In this document: in pieces, positions 8,671-60,005 of the stretch
Layout: every line of letters begins with the position of its first letter
How positions within the stretch are numbered: the first letter of the stretch is position 1
Virus record (IMG/VR): IMGVR_UViG_2693429713_000009
Length of the DNA: 64,000 nt
Source of the DNA: a virus
Taxonomy: Duplodnaviria > Heunggongvirae > Uroviricota > Caudoviricetes
Reading direction: 5' to 3' (one strand)
Made by a program: the position numbers and the translations under genes
The notes under the pieces: model-generated
The model's database searches: none
What the model saw: only the letters and a program-made list of their open reading frames with translations
Told to the model about the DNA's origin: nothing

Positions 8671-8688
8671 TTGCCTTGTTAAGTTAAA

Positions 8689-8697
8689 TTTCTAACA
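8689..8697. promoter_or_regulatory. C1-type operator-like motif TTTCTAACA
   Basis: Member of recurring TGTTAGAAAA/TTTTCTAACA family; followed by AGTGTA-N6-TACACT dyad and a cluster of three GATC sites (8721-8750) upstream of RepL-like gene. Confidence 0.45.
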
Positions 8698-8870: not shown

Positions 8871-9833
8871 GTGAGTATTTTAAATTCAGTTTCAGTAACT
8901 TTCAACACTTCTGAGTATAAAAACAACACTGAATACCACAAAAAAATCAAAGGTCATCAGTTGAGTTTTTTTGCTCGTCATAGCGGTCTTCTTTCCCCTT
9001 CACATAGCGCCATTATTGCCGAGTTCGCCAACCTGGCAGGGTCTACCGATGAATACATGATCCGTCGCTCATATGCTGATATGTCCGAGATTACAGGACG
9101 CAGTATTTCTACTGTGCGCCGGGCATTTGCTGAAGCGACGAAGTGCGGAATGCTTGTTAAGCAACATCAGGTAGCGAATAACAATGCCCAGGTGTGTAAC
9201 GTATATCGGTTTACGACACAATTTCTCCACTTCATTCATGTAGCAATGGAGATAGGGGGTAAGCAGGGCATCAAATTTGCCAACGCCACAAAACTGGTTA
9301 AGCAGTTGATTTCAAAGGTTCGTTATTTTTTTGAAACTGGGAACCCCCTGTTCAAATTGAACAAGTCCCCCCATGTTCAAATTGAACAGCCAATAGAAAA
9401 TAAGAGTCACTCTATAGCAAAAAGAAGAGAAAGATCATGCGCGGTTCAGCCAAAGGCTTCACCAGCAGATAGTTCTCAAGCGGATAATGGGGTACTGGAT
9501 AAAAAACCAGTAATCAGGGAAGAACATACCAACCACTGCCTGGCGGCGGCAAAAGCGAGAGCTGCAAAGCGTCGTTCAGACGAGGGGCACGCAAAACGGC
9601 AGGCTCTGTATCGTACCGCTGAAAAGCTGGCAAAAAAATTTGCATGGATACGTAGTGCCGCTACCGCAGTGAATAAGCCTAAACAATCCAGTGCCCTGGA
9701 TTTCTCAATGGATTATTCTGGCTCCCAGGGGTGTGCAACCATTGGTGAAGCCTTTGACCTGATGAAACAGCGTGGCTATCGGTCTGAATTTGACCGTGAG
9801 GATTGGTCAATCCCGGCGGGCTTTAGGGGATGA
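8871..9833 (+). CDS. RepL-like replication protein
   Basis: 320 aa with HTH-like ITGRSISTVRRAF; operator-controlled promoter; internal twin palindromes. Confidence 0.4.
   Translation: MSILNSVSVTFNTSEYKNNTEYHKKIKGHQLSFFARHSGLLSPSHSAIIAEFANLAGSTDEYMIRRSYADMSEITGRSISTVRRAFAEATKCGMLVKQHQVANNNAQVCNVYRFTTQFLHFIHVAMEIGGKQGIKFANATKLVKQLISKVRYFFETGNPLFKLNKSPHVQIEQPIENKSHSIAKRRERSCAVQPKASPADSSQADNGVLDKKPVIREEHTNHCLAAAKARAAKRRSDEGHAKRQALYRTAEKLAKKFAWIRSAATAVNKPKQSSALDFSMDYSGSQGCATIGEAFDLMKQRGYRSEFDREDWSIPAGFRG
9349..9388. repeat. two copies of 15-bp palindrome TGTTCAAATTGAACA inside RepL-like CDS
   Basis: Perfect dyads at about 9349-9363 and 9374-9388; candidate origin element. Confidence 0.5.
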
Positions 9834-9887
9834 CCTGTGTGTCTACAAAACATCCCAATGATCGGAAAATGCTCGCTCGATGATTTG

Positions 9888-9917
9888 TGTTAGAAAATTA
9901 ATTTGATGTTTCTAAAT
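9888..9917. promoter_or_regulatory. paired operator-like motifs TGTTAGAAAA-N11-TTTCTAAAT
   Basis: Inverted pair of the recurring motif upstream of the icd/antirepressor unit. Confidence 0.5.
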
Positions 9918-10019
9918 CGGAATGTATGATCTGCATCATCGACTGAAGTCATCCATTGCTGAAATTTTTAGTTGATCTTCCATGTTTTCAGGCTTATATT
10001 CATGCCGTCGTAGCAAATT

Positions 10020-10215
10020 CTGCGACCGGGTTTGACAGCCTGAATACTTACGCGGACAACCGCACATTTCCGATATTGCGGTATTTTTGTGTCCGTAAAA
10101 CCACGTTACGCCCGAATTATGGTGGGGCGTGATGGGGAGGCTTCGGCCTGCTGGTTTCGTAAGTGCCAGTCTGTCAACCCTGTCACGTCCTGCCACCTGT
10201 TTGACAGCGGGTCGC
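10020..10215 (+). ncRNA. candidate c4-like antisense RNA region
   Basis: Non-coding leader upstream of icd-like gene with direct repeats GTTTGACAGC (about 10029 and 10199) and complementary CTGTCAACCCTGTCAC (about 10172). Confidence 0.25.
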
Positions 10216-10246
10216 AGGTTGTTTATCAACTTACGAGGCCGTAACT

Positions 10247-10471
10247 ATGGTTAATGCCAATCCTTGCTCACGCCCAGAATTCATCTGGCGTTTCCACTCC
10301 CTGCAAAAACACTGCGATCACTTCGCAATTGCCGCAACCGAAAAAGAAGCCCGTTCTCTGATCCCTGATCAGTATGGTGTTCTTACTGGTCGTTTCTCTA
10401 CTTCCCCACAACCAAACACTAATCCCTGGTATCGCAATATTACCAATCCCGGAATTGCGGAGGCACACTGA
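10247..10471 (+). CDS. Icd-like small protein
   Basis: 74 aa ORF ending in TGATG overlap with antirepressor start, as P1 icd-ant. Confidence 0.35.
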   Translation: MVNANPCSRPEFIWRFHSLQKHCDHFAIAATEKEARSLIPDQYGVLTGRFSTSPQPNTNPWYRNITNPGIAEAH

Positions 10472-11178
10472 TGGAAATCTGCATTCTTGAAAAGCCATCA
10501 ATGACCAGCATTGAGATCGCGGAGCTGGTGGGAAGTCGCCCGGATAACGTTAAACGCACTATTGAACGCTTGAGTAAATCAGGTGTTATTCCACTTCCTC
10601 CAATGGAGGTTTCCGAAAATATCAATAACTTAGGATTTAAAGTTAAAAATTCACACTACGTCTTCGAAGGCGAGCAAGGCAAGCGTGACAGTATCATTGT
10701 CGTTGCGCAGCTTTCTCCCGAATTTACCGCCCGGCTGGTGGACCGCTGGCGCGAACTGGAAGAACAAGTACGCCAGCCGTTGACCGAAATAGAGATGATC
10801 GCCGCAATGGCTGCAAATGCAGTTCAGCAGCAAAAGCGGCTTCATGTTGTTGAGTCAAAGGTTAGCCAGGTGGTAGAAACCGTCGAGCAAATCAAGAAGG
10901 GCAACATGCCAGATGGTTACATTGGCTACCGCCAGCTGGCTGCGAAATGTGGCCTGACCGAAGCCAAATGCCGCAACCTTGTCAACGCTTACCGGATTCC
11001 CACCGATACACATGAGTTTTTAACTCCAGAGGGGGTATTGTCGCGTCGTTCCATCGTGGCCTTATCTCCCTTCATGAATGCTTTTAACCGGATGATGTCG
11101 GAGGCTGAACACCGAGGAAAACGCTGGTATCACCCCAAAATGGGGCAATTCCAGGTGATCGGTTGGGGAGGTGAGTGA
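10471..11178 (+). CDS. antirepressor, Rha/Ant family
   Basis: 235 aa; N-terminal Rha-like regulatory domain. Confidence 0.5.
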   Translation: MEICILEKPSMTSIEIAELVGSRPDNVKRTIERLSKSGVIPLPPMEVSENINNLGFKVKNSHYVFEGEQGKRDSIIVVAQLSPEFTARLVDRWRELEEQVRQPLTEIEMIAAMAANAVQQQKRLHVVESKVSQVVETVEQIKKGNMPDGYIGYRQLAAKCGLTEAKCRNLVNAYRIPTDTHEFLTPEGVLSRRSIVALSPFMNAFNRMMSEAEHRGKRWYHPKMGQFQVIGWGGE

Positions 11179-11375
11179 TGGACATCATGCAGGCGGTAAA
11201 AAAAATCAGGGAAGGACAGGCTGAAGTGTGCCGCCGTAAAGCATGGAGTGTTGGTGTATGGGCCTGGCCTGATAATTACTCTACTACCGGATGGTTTTGT
11301 ATTAATGGACTCCAGATCCGGGAAGTTGATTTATCGACGGCTGATATAGTCGGTAATGATTGGATCGTGACTTGA
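11175..11375 (+). CDS. DUF2829-like small protein
   Basis: 66 aa; REGQAEVCRRKAWSVGVWAW and C-terminal DWIV resemble DUF2829/Tad2 signature; ATGA overlap with upstream gene. Confidence 0.35.
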   Translation: MMDIMQAVKKIREGQAEVCRRKAWSVGVWAWPDNYSTTGWFCINGLQIREVDLSTADIVGNDWIVT

Positions 11376-11383
11376 AGCGTGAT

Positions 11384-11408
11384 GCCCCGGCCTGGCCGGG
11401 GCTTTTTT
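11384..11408 (+). terminator. intrinsic terminator
   Basis: GCCCCGGCC-T-GGCCGGGGC then TTTTTT. Confidence 0.6.
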
Positions 11409-11893
11409 CATGCCTCATTAGTTGAGGTTGCTGCGTCTCCGACTGGTAACAGAGCGGTATTGCGTGGTTCGCCAGCAGGCCAGCGATAGCCAGACACTCT
11501 TGATGTTGGGAATGCGCGAATATTAACCGCATCCCCCTGGTTCCCACCCAGGACAAGCAGATCGCCATTGGCGCGGCGTCCGACAACGAAGCCTACGTGC
11601 CCACCGCCTACGCGGGTAAATACAACGATACATCCGTATGCCGGTGTATCTAATTTCTCGCCCCAATCCAGATAGGATTTTGCCGACTCAAATCTTGTTG
11701 AGCGGATGCCTACACGTTCCAGCATTGCACCGACAAATGCTGCGCACCACGGCGTTTCATCGTCTTTAATTCCGCCGCGCTTGATGTCGCGCCAGAACTG
11801 AACGATTTCAGGGTTGTGTTTAGCGCCTTTTATTTCAGTCAGGCCAATGTGCTTACGGGCTTCAATTAGCCAGCGAGGTTCAATGTTTGCCAT
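11408..11893 (-). CDS. CHAP/NlpC-P60-like cell wall peptidase
   Basis: 161 aa; catalytic-like Cys in TPWCAAFVG and His in GGHVGFVVG. Confidence 0.5.
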   Translation of the reverse strand: MANIEPRWLIEARKHIGLTEIKGAKHNPEIVQFWRDIKRGGIKDDETPWCAAFVGAMLERVGIRSTRFESAKSYLDWGEKLDTPAYGCIVVFTRVGGGHVGFVVGRRANGDLLVLGGNQGDAVNIRAFPTSRVSGYRWPAGEPRNTALLPVGDAATSTNEA

Positions 11894-20832: not shown

Positions 20833-20842
20833 TGTTAGAAAA
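20833..20842. promoter_or_regulatory. operator-like motif TGTTAGAAAA
   Basis: Upstream of 407-aa gene. Confidence 0.45.
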
Positions 20843-20855
20843 CTAATTTAACAAA

Positions 20856-22079
20856 GTGACGGGAACAGCAATGAGTCAACACACTGATACTTCTAATCTG
20901 GAAATTATCTCGACAGCAATTGAAACGCTGCGCACACAAATCGCTCTTATACAGAAACGGAATCCGGGTGATGACCTGTCAAAGCGACTGCACGAGAGTG
21001 TCATTGCCACTACAGATAACCTGGTGGCGGAAATCAACAAGCTGCTTGATGATGGGGCAGTTGATTACAATAAGCTGGTGGATCAGTTTGAGGAATACCA
21101 ACAAGCCGTTAATGATGGCTTGATCCGTTTTTCACAAGTCACAGGCGTATCAGCGACAGTTGAAAGCCTGGGCGATGCAGTTAATCAATTTGCCGCGAAT
21201 ATGCGTAATGAGATCGGCAATCTGGAAGCGCGTCTTGAACAGGCAAATACACTGCGTAAATCTGCCGAAGCTGATTTGAACCGTTACAAAAAAGACTATC
21301 CGCCCAGCCTGACAAAGCGGCTGGATGTTGCGGAGAAGGATAACCGCACGCTGAAAAGAGAGCGCCGGGAACTAAAAGAGCGTTTAACCAAGCTCAATCA
21401 GCAATGCATTGATTATCAAGGCGAAGGCGTCACACTGCGTAAAAAGTTGGCTACAGCGCAGAGCATTATCGAAACATTAAAGCGAGAGTGCTCACAGCTT
21501 GGTCACGATCTGAACCGTGCTTGTGGCATGGGACAAAGACCAGAGACATTTCCACTTATGTATGACGGAAGGGATGCCATTGCCTACATCCATGAGTATC
21601 CGCACGGCCTGGTTGCGGAAACTGGGCAGCGTGGCGAAGCACTGCTGACGGCTAATTACCATCAACAAATCAGAACCAATCGCCTGTTAACGATGGATGT
21701 GATCCCATCGGTATGGGGAACGCCGCTTTACTATCGCCTGCCGGGCTTCGAAAAGGACTGGAATACCGACATAGACGAATGTCTCGCAGATAAAATTATG
21801 GCGTACCTGGAGACGGATTTTCCGCGCTTATATCGCCGGATTATGGACTCTAAGGATGCGCCAATCGATGAATTAAAAATGCGTCCGGAGACGCTGGAGG
21901 CAATCAAGCAGACGGAGTTTGATACTGTATTCAGTGTGGCCTGCATTCCAAGCTGTTTCCATGAAAGCATTCCGTTCATGCAAGGAGATCGTCGTCAGGA
22001 AATCATTGACGCTTGCCGGGTATGGGCGAACGAATGGGATAAGAAGAATGGGGGTGTAGAAGATCTTTACGGGAAATAA
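20856..22079 (+). CDS. hypothetical coiled-coil protein
   Basis: 407 aa; GTG in track, alternative ATG at 20871. Confidence 0.45.
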   Translation: MTGTAMSQHTDTSNLEIISTAIETLRTQIALIQKRNPGDDLSKRLHESVIATTDNLVAEINKLLDDGAVDYNKLVDQFEEYQQAVNDGLIRFSQVTGVSATVESLGDAVNQFAANMRNEIGNLEARLEQANTLRKSAEADLNRYKKDYPPSLTKRLDVAEKDNRTLKRERRELKERLTKLNQQCIDYQGEGVTLRKKLATAQSIIETLKRECSQLGHDLNRACGMGQRPETFPLMYDGRDAIAYIHEYPHGLVAETGQRGEALLTANYHQQIRTNRLLTMDVIPSVWGTPLYYRLPGFEKDWNTDIDECLADKIMAYLETDFPRLYRRIMDSKDAPIDELKMRPETLEAIKQTEFDTVFSVACIPSCFHESIPFMQGDRRQEIIDACRVWANEWDKKNGGVEDLYGK

Positions 22080-22081
22080 TG

Positions 22082-22091
22082 TGTTAGAAAT
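22082..22091. promoter_or_regulatory. operator-like motif TGTTAGAAAT
   Basis: At start of the non-coding RNA locus. Confidence 0.4.
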
Positions 22092-22237
22092 CTAAAATCA
22101 CAATTCGAATGTATTGATTGTGAAGGTAACTTAACATAGAATTTTCCTTGCTGGTGGGCGGTACCCACGTTTCGCTTGCTGGGCTTGATAGTCACTTATT
22201 GGTTATTGTTCACCCACCAGCATTTAACAAATTAAAG

Positions 22238-23314: not shown

Positions 23315-23391
23315 GGTGGTGTAGCTCAGTAGGATAGAGCAGCAGCCTTCTAAGCTGTCGGTCGGTGGTTCGAATCCACCCACCATCGCCA
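23315..23391 (+). tRNA. tRNA-Arg (anticodon TCT)
   Basis: Cloverleaf by eye: acceptor GGTGGTG/CACCATC, D arm GCTC..GAGC, anticodon loop CTTCTAA, T arm GGTGG-TTCGAAT-CCACC, encoded CCA. Confidence 0.75.
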
Positions 23392-23396
23392 ATTTA

Positions 23397-23483
23397 GGGG
23401 AGTTAGTCCGTAGGGGTAGCGGGGTAGACTGTAAATCTACTGTCATTGCGACTCGGATGGTTCGACTCCATCACTCCCCACCA
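23397..23483 (+). tRNA. tRNA-Tyr (anticodon GTA), long variable arm
   Basis: Acceptor GGGGAGT/ACTCCCC, anticodon stem-loop GTAGA-CTGTAAA-TCTAC, variable arm TGTCATTGCGACTCG, T arm GATGG-TTCGACT-CCATC, CCA. Confidence 0.65.
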
Positions 23484-23487
23484 AATT

Positions 23488-23563
23488 GCCGGTTTTGCTC
23501 AGTTGGTAGAGCGCCTGCCTTGTAAGCAGGATGTCAGCGGTTCGAGTCCGTTAACCGGCACCA
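23488..23563 (+). tRNA. tRNA-Thr (anticodon TGT)
   Basis: Acceptor GCCGGTT/AACCGGC, D arm GCTCAGTTGGTAGAGC, anticodon loop CTTGTAA, T loop TTCGAGT, CCA. Confidence 0.8.
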
Positions 23564-24811: not shown

Positions 24812-25211
24812 CACCGCAATCTAATAAAGTTTCAAGCAATGGAGTTTTTGTTGTCAGACTTCAGATATAGATGGTTGTGGAAGGAGAGCCTGTGCATAGT
24901 GCAGTTATTTCTTCCGCTATTTGTCTGCTTTTTCATGCTTCCTGAGCTGAAATACGCAATTTCAGACACTTTAAGCACTATCGTTACTTTTGTGTTTTAT
25001 CTTTACTTTGATTACTTATTGAGCACTAAAATCAATGAATTATCCGAGGAAATGCAAGGTGGCTGTAAGTGATGAATTTTTGGGCGTTTGCCGATAAGAA
25101 CCCTGGTTGGACATTTTTATTTTTGCTGGTGGTTGCATATGGGGTCGAGCAAGCGGCAAAAGCCTTACGCGGTTCTGGCAAAAAGCGTAAGCGGAATTAA
25201 CAGTAATCTGG

Positions 25212-25287
25212 CCCTTTAGCTCAGTGGTTAGAGCAGGCGACTCATAATCGCACGGTCACCGGTTCAAATCCGGTAGGGGCCACCATA
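25212..25287 (+). tRNA. tRNA-Ile2 (anticodon CAT, lysidine type)
   Basis: Near-identical by recall to E. coli ileX: GGCCCTTTAGCTCAGTGGTTAGAGCAGGCGACTCATAATCGC...TTCAAATCC...GGGGCCACCA. Confidence 0.75.
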
Positions 25288-26707: not shown

Positions 26708-26727
26708 CGTTAGGTGTTTAATATTAA

Positions 26728-26737
26728 TTTTCTAATA
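26728..26737. promoter_or_regulatory. operator-like motif TTTTCTAATA overlapping TATAAT
   Basis: Variant of recurring motif fused to a -10-like hexamer upstream of Lpa-like gene. Confidence 0.45.
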
Positions 26738-31142: not shown

Positions 31143-31160
31143 TATTCCTACTCGATTTAG

Positions 31161-31170
31161 TTTTCTAACA
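31161..31170. promoter_or_regulatory. operator-like motif TTTTCTAACA in repressor promoter
   Basis: 19 nt upstream of repressor start codon. Confidence 0.5.
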
Positions 31171-31536: not shown

Positions 31537-32565
31537 ATGAGTGAATTAATTATCTCTGGCAGTTCCGGTGGTTTTCTGCGCAACATTGGCAAAGAGTACC
31601 AGGAAGCCGCAGAAAACTTTATGCGGTTCATGAATGACCAGGGGGCTTATGCGCCGAATACTCTGCGCGACCTCCGTTTGGTGTTTCATTCCTGGGCGCG
31701 CTGGTGTCACGCTCGCCAGCTTGCCTGGTTTCCGATCTCACCAGAAATGGCCCGCGAGTATTTTCTTCAGCTGCATGATGCCGATCTGGCTTCGACCACC
31801 ATTGATAAGCACTACGCCATGCTGAACATGCTGCTTTCGCATTGTGGCCTTCCGCCACTTTCGGATGATAAAAGTGTTTCTCTGGCTATGCGGCGCATCC
31901 GGCGCGAAGCGGCAACTGAAAAAGGCGAACGAACAGGCCAGGCTATACCGCTGCGGTGGGACGATCTGAAACTGCTCGACGTCCTGTTGTCCAGGTCAGA
32001 ACGGCTGGTGGACCTGCGCAACCGGGCTTTTCTCTTTGTTGCATACAATACGCTGATGCGTATGTCGGAAATATCGCGTATTCGTGTAGGTGATCTGGAC
32101 CAAACAGGTGACACTGTCACGCTACATATTTCACACACGAAGACAATAACGACCGCCGCCGGGCTTGATAAGGTGCTTTCCCGTCGCACTACCGCTGTGC
32201 TGAATGACTGGCTGGATGTTTCCGGGCTTCGCGAACACCCTGACGCAGTGCTGTTCCCGCCGATACACCGTAGCAATAAGGCCAGGATCACGACAACGCC
32301 ACTTACTGCACCTGCAATGGAGAAAATATTCAGCGACGCCTGGGTGTTGCTGAATAAAAGAGATGCTACGCCAAACAAAGGAAGATACCGGACGTGGACC
32401 GGGCATAGTGCACGCGTCGGGGCCGCTATTGATATGGCTGAAAAGCAGGTGTCTATGGTGGAGATCATGCAGGAAGGAACCTGGAAGAAACCGGAAACAC
32501 TTATGCGGTATCTCCGCCGTGGCGGCGTGTCTGTGGGGGCTAATAGCCGCCTGATGGATTCGTAA
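31537..32565 (+). CDS. cre: Cre-like tyrosine recombinase
   Basis: 342 aa; SWARWCHARQLAWFP and C-terminal GHSARVGAA closely parallel P1 Cre. Confidence 0.9.
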   Translation: MSELIISGSSGGFLRNIGKEYQEAAENFMRFMNDQGAYAPNTLRDLRLVFHSWARWCHARQLAWFPISPEMAREYFLQLHDADLASTTIDKHYAMLNMLLSHCGLPPLSDDKSVSLAMRRIRREAATEKGERTGQAIPLRWDDLKLLDVLLSRSERLVDLRNRAFLFVAYNTLMRMSEISRIRVGDLDQTGDTVTLHISHTKTITTAAGLDKVLSRRTTAVLNDWLDVSGLREHPDAVLFPPIHRSNKARITTTPLTAPAMEKIFSDAWVLLNKRDATPNKGRYRTWTGHSARVGAAIDMAEKQVSMVEIMQEGTWKKPETLMRYLRRGGVSVGANSRLMDS

Positions 32566-32572
32566 ATTAAAT

Positions 32573-32581
32573 TTCTAACAC
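32573..32581. promoter_or_regulatory. operator-like motif TTTCTAACA
   Basis: Between cre and downstream gene. Confidence 0.4.
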
Positions 32582-45142: not shown

Positions 45143-45184
45143 AATGCATACCGACTCTGTTTTGTTCCGATCGGTAAAATAATA

Positions 45185-45213
45185 TGTTAGAAAACTAAAA
45201 TCAATGTTCTAAC
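45185..45213. promoter_or_regulatory. paired operator-like motifs TGTTAGAAAA-N11-GTTCTAAC
   Basis: Intergenic between phosphatase gene and downstream gene. Confidence 0.45.
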
Positions 45214-45240
45214 GTGATTTTGAGTGCGTAAATGATTTGA

Positions 45241-49735: not shown

Positions 49736-49774
49736 GTCCTCCAAACAGTTATCAGGAATGATATTAATGTTTTG

Positions 49775-49805
49775 TGTTAGAAAATCTATTTTGAATATCT
49801 AACCA
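49775..49805. promoter_or_regulatory. operator-like motifs in divergent promoter region
   Basis: TGTTAGAAAA at 49775 and ATCTAACCA at 49797 between leftward operon and ref. Confidence 0.45.
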
Positions 49806-49852: not shown

Positions 49853-50431
49853 ATGCAGAAACAGAGCTATTGGGAGAAACAGAGGCAAAAAGCCATGCAA
49901 AAATTGGCTGACCCGGCCTGGCGAGAGGAACAAAGGGCAAAGCGCCTTCAACAAGCTCAACGCCAGCAGCAGCGAGCGAGAGAAAAAGCCGCATCGCCTG
50001 AATATCGGCAAAAAAAAATTGAAAAAGCAAAGCAATATGACCAGCGGAGAAAAGAGAAAGCTGTATCCGCTCCGTCCAAAAAAACACGCACGTCACGCGG
50101 CCTGAAGGGCAGATCACTCACAGCCGATGAACGCCGGATACAGACCGCTATCGGTACTCTCCCCTGCATTGCCTGCCATATTCACGGGAAACATAGCCCA
50201 GTGGTATCCCTGCACCATATCTTCGGGAGAACGGCAGAGAACGCACATAAATATGTCCTCCCTTTGTGTAAATGGCACCACCAGTACGCAGCGCCAGCCG
50301 AGGTCCGAGAACAATATCCCTGGCTGGTCCCTGTTCATGCTGATGGAAAAATAGGCGGAAAAGCAGATTTCATACGGCACAATGCCGATGAAATGGCGTT
50401 GTATCAGATGGCGATTGAATTGATAAATTAG
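49853..50431 (+). CDS. ref: Ref HNH endonuclease
   Basis: 192 aa; LPCIACHIHG...SLHHI.GRT...LPLCKWHHQYAAPAEVREQYPWLVPVHADG matches P1 Ref as recalled. Confidence 0.8.
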   Translation: MQKQSYWEKQRQKAMQKLADPAWREEQRAKRLQQAQRQQQRAREKAASPEYRQKKIEKAKQYDQRRKEKAVSAPSKKTRTSRGLKGRSLTADERRIQTAIGTLPCIACHIHGKHSPVVSLHHIFGRTAENAHKYVLPLCKWHHQYAAPAEVREQYPWLVPVHADGKIGGKADFIRHNADEMALYQMAIELIN

Positions 50432-50440
50432 TTTTCTAAC
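50431..50440. promoter_or_regulatory. operator-like motif TTTTCTAACA
   Basis: Immediately after ref stop. Confidence 0.4.
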
Positions 50441-50763: not shown

Positions 50764-50937
50764 TGACTGTTCGCTACCTCAACTTTCAAATCAAGAACAT
50801 TACTGGCGGTTGCTATGACTGGTTTGTCACTCTCGGAAAAGAAGTGATTACTGGTAAACTGGATGAAGTGAAAGCTAAAGCAATGGCCTACGCCTGCAAG
50901 CAAACCAGGAAGAAATCAACCAAGCATAAAGCCTGAA
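50764..50937 (+). CDS. small hypothetical protein (not in ORF track)
   Basis: 57 aa ORF with GGGGGTG upstream. Confidence 0.3.
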
Positions 50938-50998
50938 GGTGTAGGGTTACCCGGGGTCGTCGGGGCTTTAACTACTAAATAACCGGATTCTCCGCACG

Positions 50999-59946: not shown

Positions 59947-59962
59947 AAAATGCACCCATTTA

Positions 59963-59992
59963 TGTTAGATAATTAACATGCATTTTCTAACA
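59963..59992. promoter_or_regulatory. paired operator-like motifs TGTTAGATAA-N10-TTTTCTAACA
   Basis: Inverted pair upstream of rdgC. Confidence 0.5.
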
Positions 59993-60005
59993 CAAATGGT
60001 GAGAC

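Follow-up and report, generated by a model that had tools for sequence, protein, structure and literature searches.

The locus considered here occupies positions 9840-11178 of a 64,000-nucleotide (nt) stretch of Caudoviricetes DNA (IMG/VR record IMGVR_UViG_2693429713_000009), hereafter the window. It raises the question of whether a unit laid out like the c4-icd-ant immunity region (immI) of bacteriophage P1 is a homologue of that region and, if so, whether its antisense RNA has a specificity of its own. A reading of the letters alone (the sequence-only reading) had described an operator pair, a leader of about 400 nt with direct and complementary repeats, and an open reading frame (ORF) of 74 amino acids (aa) overlapping the gene of a Rha/Ant-type antirepressor. 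This layout had been likened to P1, with the reservation that the sequences were different and suggested a distinct antisense RNA specificity. In P1, the c4-icd-ant1/2 operon is repressed by C1, full repression of ant requires the C4 antisense RNA in addition, and C1 is bound by Ant (PMC8198154). The C4 RNA pairs in the region of the ribosome-binding site and accounts for the heteroimmunity of P1 and P7 (PMC12197685), which has been reported to arise from minor nucleotide differences in ImmI (PMC6906374). The results presented here indicate that the unit is very probably the secondary immunity operon (immI) carried by a D6-like plasmid prophage, homologous to the c4-icd-ant region of P1 and P7 and presumably working by the same mechanism.

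Homology with the immI region of P1

Between 9987 and 10358, a region that takes in a1/b1, c4, a2/b2 and approximately the first 37 codons of icd, the window exhibited 86-92% DNA identity to P1, P7, SJ46 and other P1-like phages, and the similarity ended abruptly at both positions. Features of P1 were transferred to the window by alignment with the annotated P1 record; the P1 promoters, a1, b1, c4, a2, b2 and the icd start aligned with the window column for column. The Rfam model C4 (RF01695) scored 69.6 bits at 10115-10200, above its gathering score of 45, and matched over its full length (1-87; E = 1.7e-11 over the whole window), and c4-a1b1 (RF03163) matched at 9994-10046 with 55.9 bits against a cut-off of 46.7 (E = 1.9e-11 over the whole window). 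The isrK model (RF01394) reached 46.5 bits at 10007-10088, below its gathering threshold of 50.

The operator pair, the leader with its repeats and the overlapping 74-aa ORF of the sequence-only reading were all present where they had been placed. The parallel drawn with P1 was correct and proved to be stronger than a parallel, since the two passing Rfam models and the DNA identity mark the unit as a homologue. The claim that the sequences differ from those of P1 did not hold for the RNA part (9987-10358), whereas it held for the operator, no P1 operator being present, and for the antirepressor, which lacks similarity to Ant1. Judged by these alignments, the resemblance of window 9840-11408 to P1 immI is true homology and not a mere likeness; the RNA part is homologous to that of P1, and the operator and effector protein are lineage-specific.

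The predicted mature c4 antisense RNA comprises 77 nt on the + strand (10121-10197), its ends being mapped from the misc_RNA feature of P1. Its predicted parts are an outer stem of 17 bp, a UUCG hairpin, another hairpin with b' (UCGUAAGU, 10157-10164) in a loop of 9 nt, a 7-nt unpaired joint formed by a' (CUGUCAA, 10171-10177), and a 3' ACC tail. RNA folding, which had been proposed as a check, gave -42.8 kcal/mol (z = -5.16) for the 77 nt with both a' and b' unpaired, and none of 200 shuffled sequences folded as well. In comparison with P1 c4, 72 of the 77 positions were identical and all five differences fell within the b' loop. Identity to P1 extends to the stem and to both sides of the cleavage point, with AAUUAU before and GGUGGGG after the cut and GCCACC at the 3' end. 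The c4 RNA of P1 is processed by RNase P.

Target sites for this RNA flank it on both sides. Upstream lies the a1/b1 motif, comprising two hairpins (9994-10053, + strand), with a1 (TTGACAG) at 10032-10038 and b1 (ACTTACGC) at 10046-10053. Downstream lies the predicted target on the icd messenger RNA (mRNA; 10201-10238, + strand), with a2 (TTGACAG) at 10201-10207 and b2 (ACTTACGA) at 10229-10236. Complementarity was exact for a' with both a1 and a2 (7 nt) and for b' with both b1 and b2 (8 nt in the case of b2). The b2 element overlaps the Shine-Dalgarno sequence of icd (GAGG, 10235-10238), which lies 8 nt ahead of the ATG.

The same elements appear in the leader (9840-10246, 407 nt) as direct repeats of GTTTGACAGC (at 10030 and 10199) and ACTTACGNGG (at 10046 and 10229) and as complementary repeats, which pair 10157-10164 with 10229-10236, 10158-10164 with 10046-10052, 10171-10177 with 10201-10207 and 10029-10042 with 10167-10180. 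A further long-range complement, CTGCGACC with GGTCGCAG (10020-10027 and 10210-10217), was set aside, as the pairing is not conserved in P1. A protein-coding leader was also considered; ORFs of 41-97 aa on both strands overlap c4 and the conserved hairpins, none has support, and the RNA was preferred.

The source element is a D6-like phage-plasmid. The region of the unit (9700-11400) shares 99.1% DNA identity with Escherichia phage D6 (MF356679 / NC_050154), and the whole window is collinear with D6 at 86-99% identity, interrupted by mosaic gaps. A search of PLSDB yielded 577 plasmid matches, 110 of them covering at least 80% of the unit query; the closest were NZ_CP028198.1 from Salmonella enterica and CP088573.1 from E. 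coli, both at 99.9%. The gene order in the D6 record is a repL-like gene, an Icd-like gene, 'anti-repressor Ant (similar to HK97 Roi)' and the hypothetical orf17; beyond these come a CHAP-domain gene in convergent orientation and a darB-like gene. An ImmI-related region with homologues of c4, icd and an antirepressor has been described for a D6-like plasmid of Salmonella (PMC6799933). The kind of regulator is well understood, the phage lineage has already been sequenced, and the unit is recognised by standard tools.

A second, divergent c4/isrK-icd-ant module is present in D6 at about 74.0-75.5 kb (D6 record ~74000-75490; L125 24022-25456), where C4 scored 76 bits and isrK 59.1 bits. This module is missing from the window, the collinear match jumping across it at a junction near 50930-50961, and no second c4/icd module was found in the 64 kb either by Rfam at gathering score or by blastn and tblastn.

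Predicted control signals, coupled genes and effector protein

An inverted pair of half-sites resembling a D6-type C1 operator (GTTAGAA-N14-TTCTAA; 9889-9916, no strand assigned; arms at 9890-9896 and 9909-9915) overlaps the -35 element (9903-9908) of a promoter-like site detected by consensus scan (TTGATG-16-TATGAT; 9903-9930, + strand). This site holds the position of P2c4 (P51a), the operator-controlled promoter of P1, and the overlap is that of P1, where Oc4 covers the -35 element of P2c4. A second promoter-like site from the same scan (TTGATC-17-TATATT; 9972-10000, + strand) aligns with P1c4 (P51b; TTGACC / TATAGT) and is without an operator. The arrangement of a C1 operator over the upstream one of two tandem promoters is therefore that of P1, with a lineage-specific operator.

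The left arm of the pair forms part of a 17-mer motif, GTTAGAAAATTAATTTG, which occurs 10 times in the window with at most 3 mismatches against an expectation of 0.38 and has the approximate consensus TRTGTTAGAAAAYTAATTTA. The P1 operator consensus, ATTGCTCTAATAAATTT, yielded no matches in the window at the same tolerance of at most 3 mismatches. The motif scan placed D6-type operator-like sites at 8680-8696, 20834-20850, 22079-22103, 26720-26736, 31153-31169, 32563-32579, 45182-45217, 49772-49796, 50424-50440 and 59960-59995. Some of these are overlapping inverted pairs, and the inverted (bivalent) geometry was seen again at about 45197, 49776 and 59964. The distance from a site to the gene downstream of it is 10-100 nt for c1, lpa, ref, pmgS and hrdC and about 175 nt for repL. 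Together they look like the C1 regulon of the element, to which C1 would be expected to bind.

The icd-like ORF of 74 aa (10247-10471, + strand) matched NCBIfam phage_ICD_like (NF033153) with 40 bits against a cut-off of 25 and PHROG 1426 with E = 5.7e-39. Over 61 aa its product shares 61% identity with P1 Icd, and the DNA similarity to P1 stops within the ORF, at 10358. The icd stop overlaps the start of the next ORF (10471-11178, + strand; 235 aa) by one base in the sequence TGATG at 10469-10473, with GGAGG 9 nt upstream of the ATG, an arrangement that suggests translational coupling of the two. A third cistron of 65 aa (D6 orf17; 11178-11375, + strand; PHROG 7385, E = 1.8e-49) begins in the same manner, with TGATG at 11176-11180 overlapping the stop of the 235-aa ORF. 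The operon is closed by a predicted intrinsic terminator at 11384-11408 (+ strand; terminator scan), consisting of 8 G-C pairs followed by TTTTTT. A terminator-like hairpin at 10058-10090 (+ strand), ACCGCA...UGCGGU followed by AUUUUUG, closes an IsrK-like short RNA at 10007-10088; it folded at -26.3 kcal/mol (z = -2.4) and was absent from the list returned by the simple terminator scan.

The 235-aa protein matched PHROG 63, 'anti-repressor Ant', with E = 1.4e-47 and carries an N-terminal winged helix (Pfam HTH_24, 31.3 bits). Over residues 11-98 it shares 70-84% identity with the N-terminal parts of lambdoid Roi proteins, labelled 'DNA-binding', and it is 65% identical to D6 orf82. Plasmid-borne copies are named 'Rha family transcriptional regulator' by the Prokaryotic Genome Annotation Pipeline (PGAP); no NCBIfam model was matched. 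Over the C-terminal 65 aa of orf82, the 313-aa Ant-like protein of the second D6 module, identity to the product of the third cistron is 40%. This homology points to a split or fused pair, whose two members probably act together. The family of the third cistron is tiny, with 3 and 7 matches in two large protein searches. Its AlphaFold model was of low confidence (predicted local distance difference test score, pLDDT, 65; predicted template modelling score, pTM, 0.42), and a Foldseek search of that model against PDB returned nothing below E = 1. Assignment of this cistron to the Tad2-like proteins that counter Thoeris defence was unsupported, the Pfam match being sub-threshold (E = 0.032; 15.2 bits against 25).

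Carried over from P1, these parts would work as follows. Of the two promoter-like starts, the upstream one (9903-9930) would be shut in the lysogen by C1 at 9889-9916. The transcript would pass through a1/b1, the weak terminator-like hairpin, c4, a2/b2, icd, ant and the third small ORF before ending at 11384-11408. The c4 stem, which resembles that of a transfer RNA (tRNA), would be excised, its 5' end being cut by RNase P as in P1, to give the 77-nt RNA (10121-10197), whose a' joint and b' loop would pair with a2 and b2 of the mRNA. The icd gene would then remain untranslated because b2 overlaps its ribosome-binding site, and the overlap of each following start with the stop ahead of it would keep ant and the third ORF silent as well. 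Without c4, or with a c4 that is outnumbered or non-cognate, the 235-aa protein would be made and would presumably inactivate the D6-type C1 repressor, leading to lytic growth. A cognate a1/b1 RNA that counteracts c4 would be a reasonable extra layer of this control.

A number of points weigh against this interpretation. RNA processing, translational repression and C1 inactivation are carried over by homology with P1, as are the activity of the promoters and the excision of c4 as a species of about 77 nt. In the operator pair, one arm (the second) fits the full 17-mer poorly, with 7 mismatches, and partial cross-repression by P1 c4 may occur, the a elements being identical to those of P1. The Phage_pRha match of the 235-aa protein (PF09669; residues 11-98, spanning the full 91-position model) reached 26.4 bits, below the cut-off of 29.9. 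The protein showed no significant match to P1 Ant1 (best BLASTP E = 0.37) and has no in-frame Ant2, no similarity to AnrP of Gifsy-1 was found, and a search of PDB sequences gave no significant match. By these comparisons it is unrelated in sequence to both experimentally studied c4-controlled antirepressors, P1 Ant1/2 and Gifsy-1 AnrP. Its closest full-length relatives, from an Stx1 phage and a Klebsiella phage, have no annotated c4 or icd upstream and are therefore of no help in assigning a function.

The 235-aa protein might instead be a Rha/Roi-type DNA-binding regulator with another role, for instance as a direct activator or a host-directed factor, and no antirepressor, in which case the unit would be an RNA-gated regulator cassette. 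The winged helix, the identity to Roi N termini, the lack of similarity to Ant1 or AnrP and the occurrence of full-length homologues in contexts without c4 all favour such a role. The protein nevertheless sits exactly at the ant position, stop/start-coupled to icd, and its best PHROG is 'anti-repressor Ant'. In addition, among the matches listed in the survey described below, the c4 cassette fronts either P1-type Ant1 or the window-type protein interchangeably and across many allele types, which suggests equivalent roles. A different role is regarded as unlikely, though deserving of some weight, and antirepressor activity, to which the position and family name of the protein point, is the preferred assignment.

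The neighbourhood of the unit is as follows. The repL-like ORF (8871-9833) lies directly upstream of immI, and no terminator-like site was found between the two on the + strand. It contains two copies of the palindrome GTTCAAATTGAAC, 25 nt apart (9351-9363 and 9376-9388), which form a candidate oriL because the oriL of P1 sits inside repL. A 161-aa CHAP-domain protein (Pfam, 31.4 bits) is encoded on the - strand at 11408-11893, convergent with the immI operon and ending beside its terminator. Its naming varies between baseplate hub/lysozyme in the D6 record and, in the paper on the D6-like plasmid, a predicted peptidoglycan hydrolase beside ImmI. Four tRNA genes occur in two groups (23315-23560 and 25210-25282), the matching region of D6 being annotated with three.

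Recognition alleles and predicted immunity specificity

The a elements of the window (a1, a' and a2) carry the P1 allele, CTGTCAA / TTGACAG in both. The b elements differ from those of P7 by 4 bases and from those of P1 at 5 of 8 positions, the changes from P1 in b', b1 and b2 compensating one another. The b' loop reads CGTAAGTG in the window and CACTAACG in P1 (5 differences), b2 reads ACTTACGA against GTTAGTGA, and the core common to b1 and b2 is ACTTACG (RNA ACUUACG) against GTTAGTG in P1. The cognate b'-b2 duplex, calculated with the isolated b' loop, reached -11.1 kcal/mol; on the window target the b' loops of P1 and P7 reached -1.9 and -5.5 kcal/mol, respectively, and the window b' loop on the P1 or P7 target reached -3.4 kcal/mol. 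Read element by element, the recognition code of the window is chimeric, its a allele being that of P1 and its b allele that of SJ46. D6 has the same allele pair, and JL22 combines the a allele of P1 with the b allele of P7. The c4 RNA of P1, P7 or SJ46 would each match at most one of the two target sites of the unit, which would be expected to be heteroimmune. The distinct specificity predicted by the sequence-only reading is thus borne out for the b elements and not for the a elements. The comparison with the c4 RNA of P1 and P7 that it had recommended yielded a common scaffold, a b allele different from both and an a allele equal to that of P1.

Related loci were sampled with an exact 21-mer from the c4 scaffold, which retrieved at least 120 IMG/VR stretches; the figures that follow refer to the matches listed. 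Two a alleles and at least 7 b alleles were found, making up at least 11 combinations. All typed loci had identical a1 and a2 elements complementary to a' and identical b1 and b2 elements complementary to b'. Covariation was assessed over 37 distinct leaders. The c4-a2/b2 pairing consisted of standard pairs in 99.2% of cases and the a1/b1-c4 pairing in 99.9% (99.6-100% by element), against 32-54% with the partners slid. Double compensatory changes were present in 6 of 8 b'-b2 pairs and 6 of 7 b1-b' pairs, 97.6% of b'-b2 cells were paired, and the c4 stems were 100% paired in the 37 distinct sequences. The force of these percentages is limited by the inheritance of a few alleles as blocks, the independent events being nearer in number to the alleles than to the loci, and not about 100.

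Sixteen loci were collinear with the whole unit at 83-97% identity and comprised five allele pairs. In the closest of them (96.7% identity), 13 of the 24 leader mismatches fell inside the six short recognition elements. Among close relatives the b alleles step by 2 bases (CACAATC, CACAAGT, CGTAAGT). A scan for the b' hairpin gave one match, in a metagenome-assembled genome, and carries little information because the genome collection scanned holds one genome per species.

A reading in which the machinery is the same and the immunity is not distinct, P1 c4 repressing this icd-ant mRNA and vice versa so that the two phages are functionally homoimmune at immI, draws on the identity of a1, a' and a2 with P1 and on an a'-a2 duplex of -7.9 kcal/mol, the same for the RNAs of the window and of P1. 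Chimeras such as JL22 occur naturally, so single-site matches between co-occurring elements must be common. However, it is b2 that lies over the Shine-Dalgarno sequence, and this element differs from P1 at 5 of 8 bases; the weak duplex of -1.9 kcal/mol formed by the P1 b' loop on the window target is, moreover, at an unrelated position. Strict complementarity of a as well as b in nearly all loci surveyed among the matches listed argues that each site is needed. P1 and P7 are reported to be heteroimmune (PMC6906374), and in the present alignment their elements differ by 2 bases in a and 2 in b. Homoimmunity with P1 is consequently considered improbable.

That the unit is a decaying, non-functional remnant of P1-like recombination is scarcely credible: the mosaic structure, with P1-like similarity stopping abruptly at 9987 and 10358, and the missing second module of D6 would fit such a history, but all parts are intact, the c4 stems pairing, the ORFs being open with coupled starts and the recognition elements complementary, and the unit is kept at 95% identity or more in dozens of E. 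coli and Salmonella plasmids. The unit is a genuine, intact immI of the P1 type.

Taken across the family, immunity in P1-like and D6-like phage-plasmids may be encoded by the two short elements of c4, acting as a combinatorial RNA 'barcode'. The alleles, each kept complementary at three sites (a1/b1, c4 and a2/b2), would reassort independently of antirepressor type, with the divergence of close relatives concentrated in roughly 45 nt. There would then be many mutually heteroimmune immI groups in place of the two of the textbooks (P1 and P7), the window would represent one chimeric type, and a1/b1 would be a cognate decoy or an activator RNA like IsrK of Gifsy-1. This proposal is put forward tentatively, as plausible and somewhat short of probable. 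No description of c4 allele combinations was found in the literature searched; the D6 genome paper lay outside that search and may describe them in part.

A single unit of this kind is of little import, and the allele combinatorics across the family are the most interesting by-product of the analysis. A c4 scaffold with many co-adapted alleles ahead of unrelated effectors represents a natural, compact and programmable RNA switch. The a and b alleles together could provide a simple sequence marker for predicting superinfection and induction among P1-like and D6-like phage-plasmids. In E. coli, antibiotic-resistance genes and virulence genes have been reported on P1-like phage-plasmids (PMC6906374), and D6-like ones are common in Salmonella and E. 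coli. As a1/b1 covary strictly with c4, sites still labelled 'putative' in the annotation of P1 gain comparative support for a function.

Comparison with known immunity systems

The order of elements in P1 immI (Oc4, P2c4/P1c4, a1 b1, c4, a2 b2, icd, ant1/ant2) is shared in full with the unit of the window. In both, b2 lies over the Shine-Dalgarno sequence of icd, ant is coupled to icd and the a alleles are identical. The window differs from P1 in its b1/b'/b2 allele, its D6-type operator, its unrelated 235-aa protein and its extra, third coupled ORF. The surroundings differ too, with repL upstream of the unit in the window, whereas P1 has sim genes upstream and kilA-repL downstream. The immI region of P7 has the same architecture and c4 scaffold, from which the window differs by 2 bases in a and 4 in b.

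Salmonella phage SJ46 exhibited 91.7% DNA identity over the c4 region of the window, the highest among the listed phage records other than D6. SJ46 and the record 'Punavirus P1' MH422554 share the b allele of the window (b' CGTAAGT, b1 and b2 ACTTAC); they differ from it in carrying the P7 a allele and a differently annotated downstream antirepressor gene. The orf19-orf18-orf17 region of D6 is essentially the same locus, with the same allele pair and genes, and the D6 record is without a c4 RNA annotation here. D6 differs in carrying the second c4/isrK-icd-ant module that is missing from the window.

The isrK - STnc1160/orf45 - anrP region of Gifsy-1 in Salmonella (L129 34131-34329) has the same succession of a1b1/IsrK, C4, small ORF and coupled antirepressor-like gene. 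In Gifsy-1, IsrK is a short, terminated RNA that acts in trans to activate the translation of orf45-anrP, which are coupled, and the position of c4 there coincides with that of a processed RNA of about 80 nt (PMC4825925). The isrK match is stronger there (79.3 bits against 46.5 in the window, with a cut-off of 50), the small ORF is of 45 aa, and AnrP is unrelated to the 235-aa protein. The hairpin that follows b1 in the window is similar to that of Gifsy-1 and weaker. The activating role of IsrK has been shown experimentally for Gifsy-1; for units of the P1 and D6 types it would be an extension by analogy. Across these systems the c4 scaffold fronts three unrelated effectors, namely Ant1/2 in P1, the Rha/Roi-like protein in D6 and AnrP in Gifsy-1.

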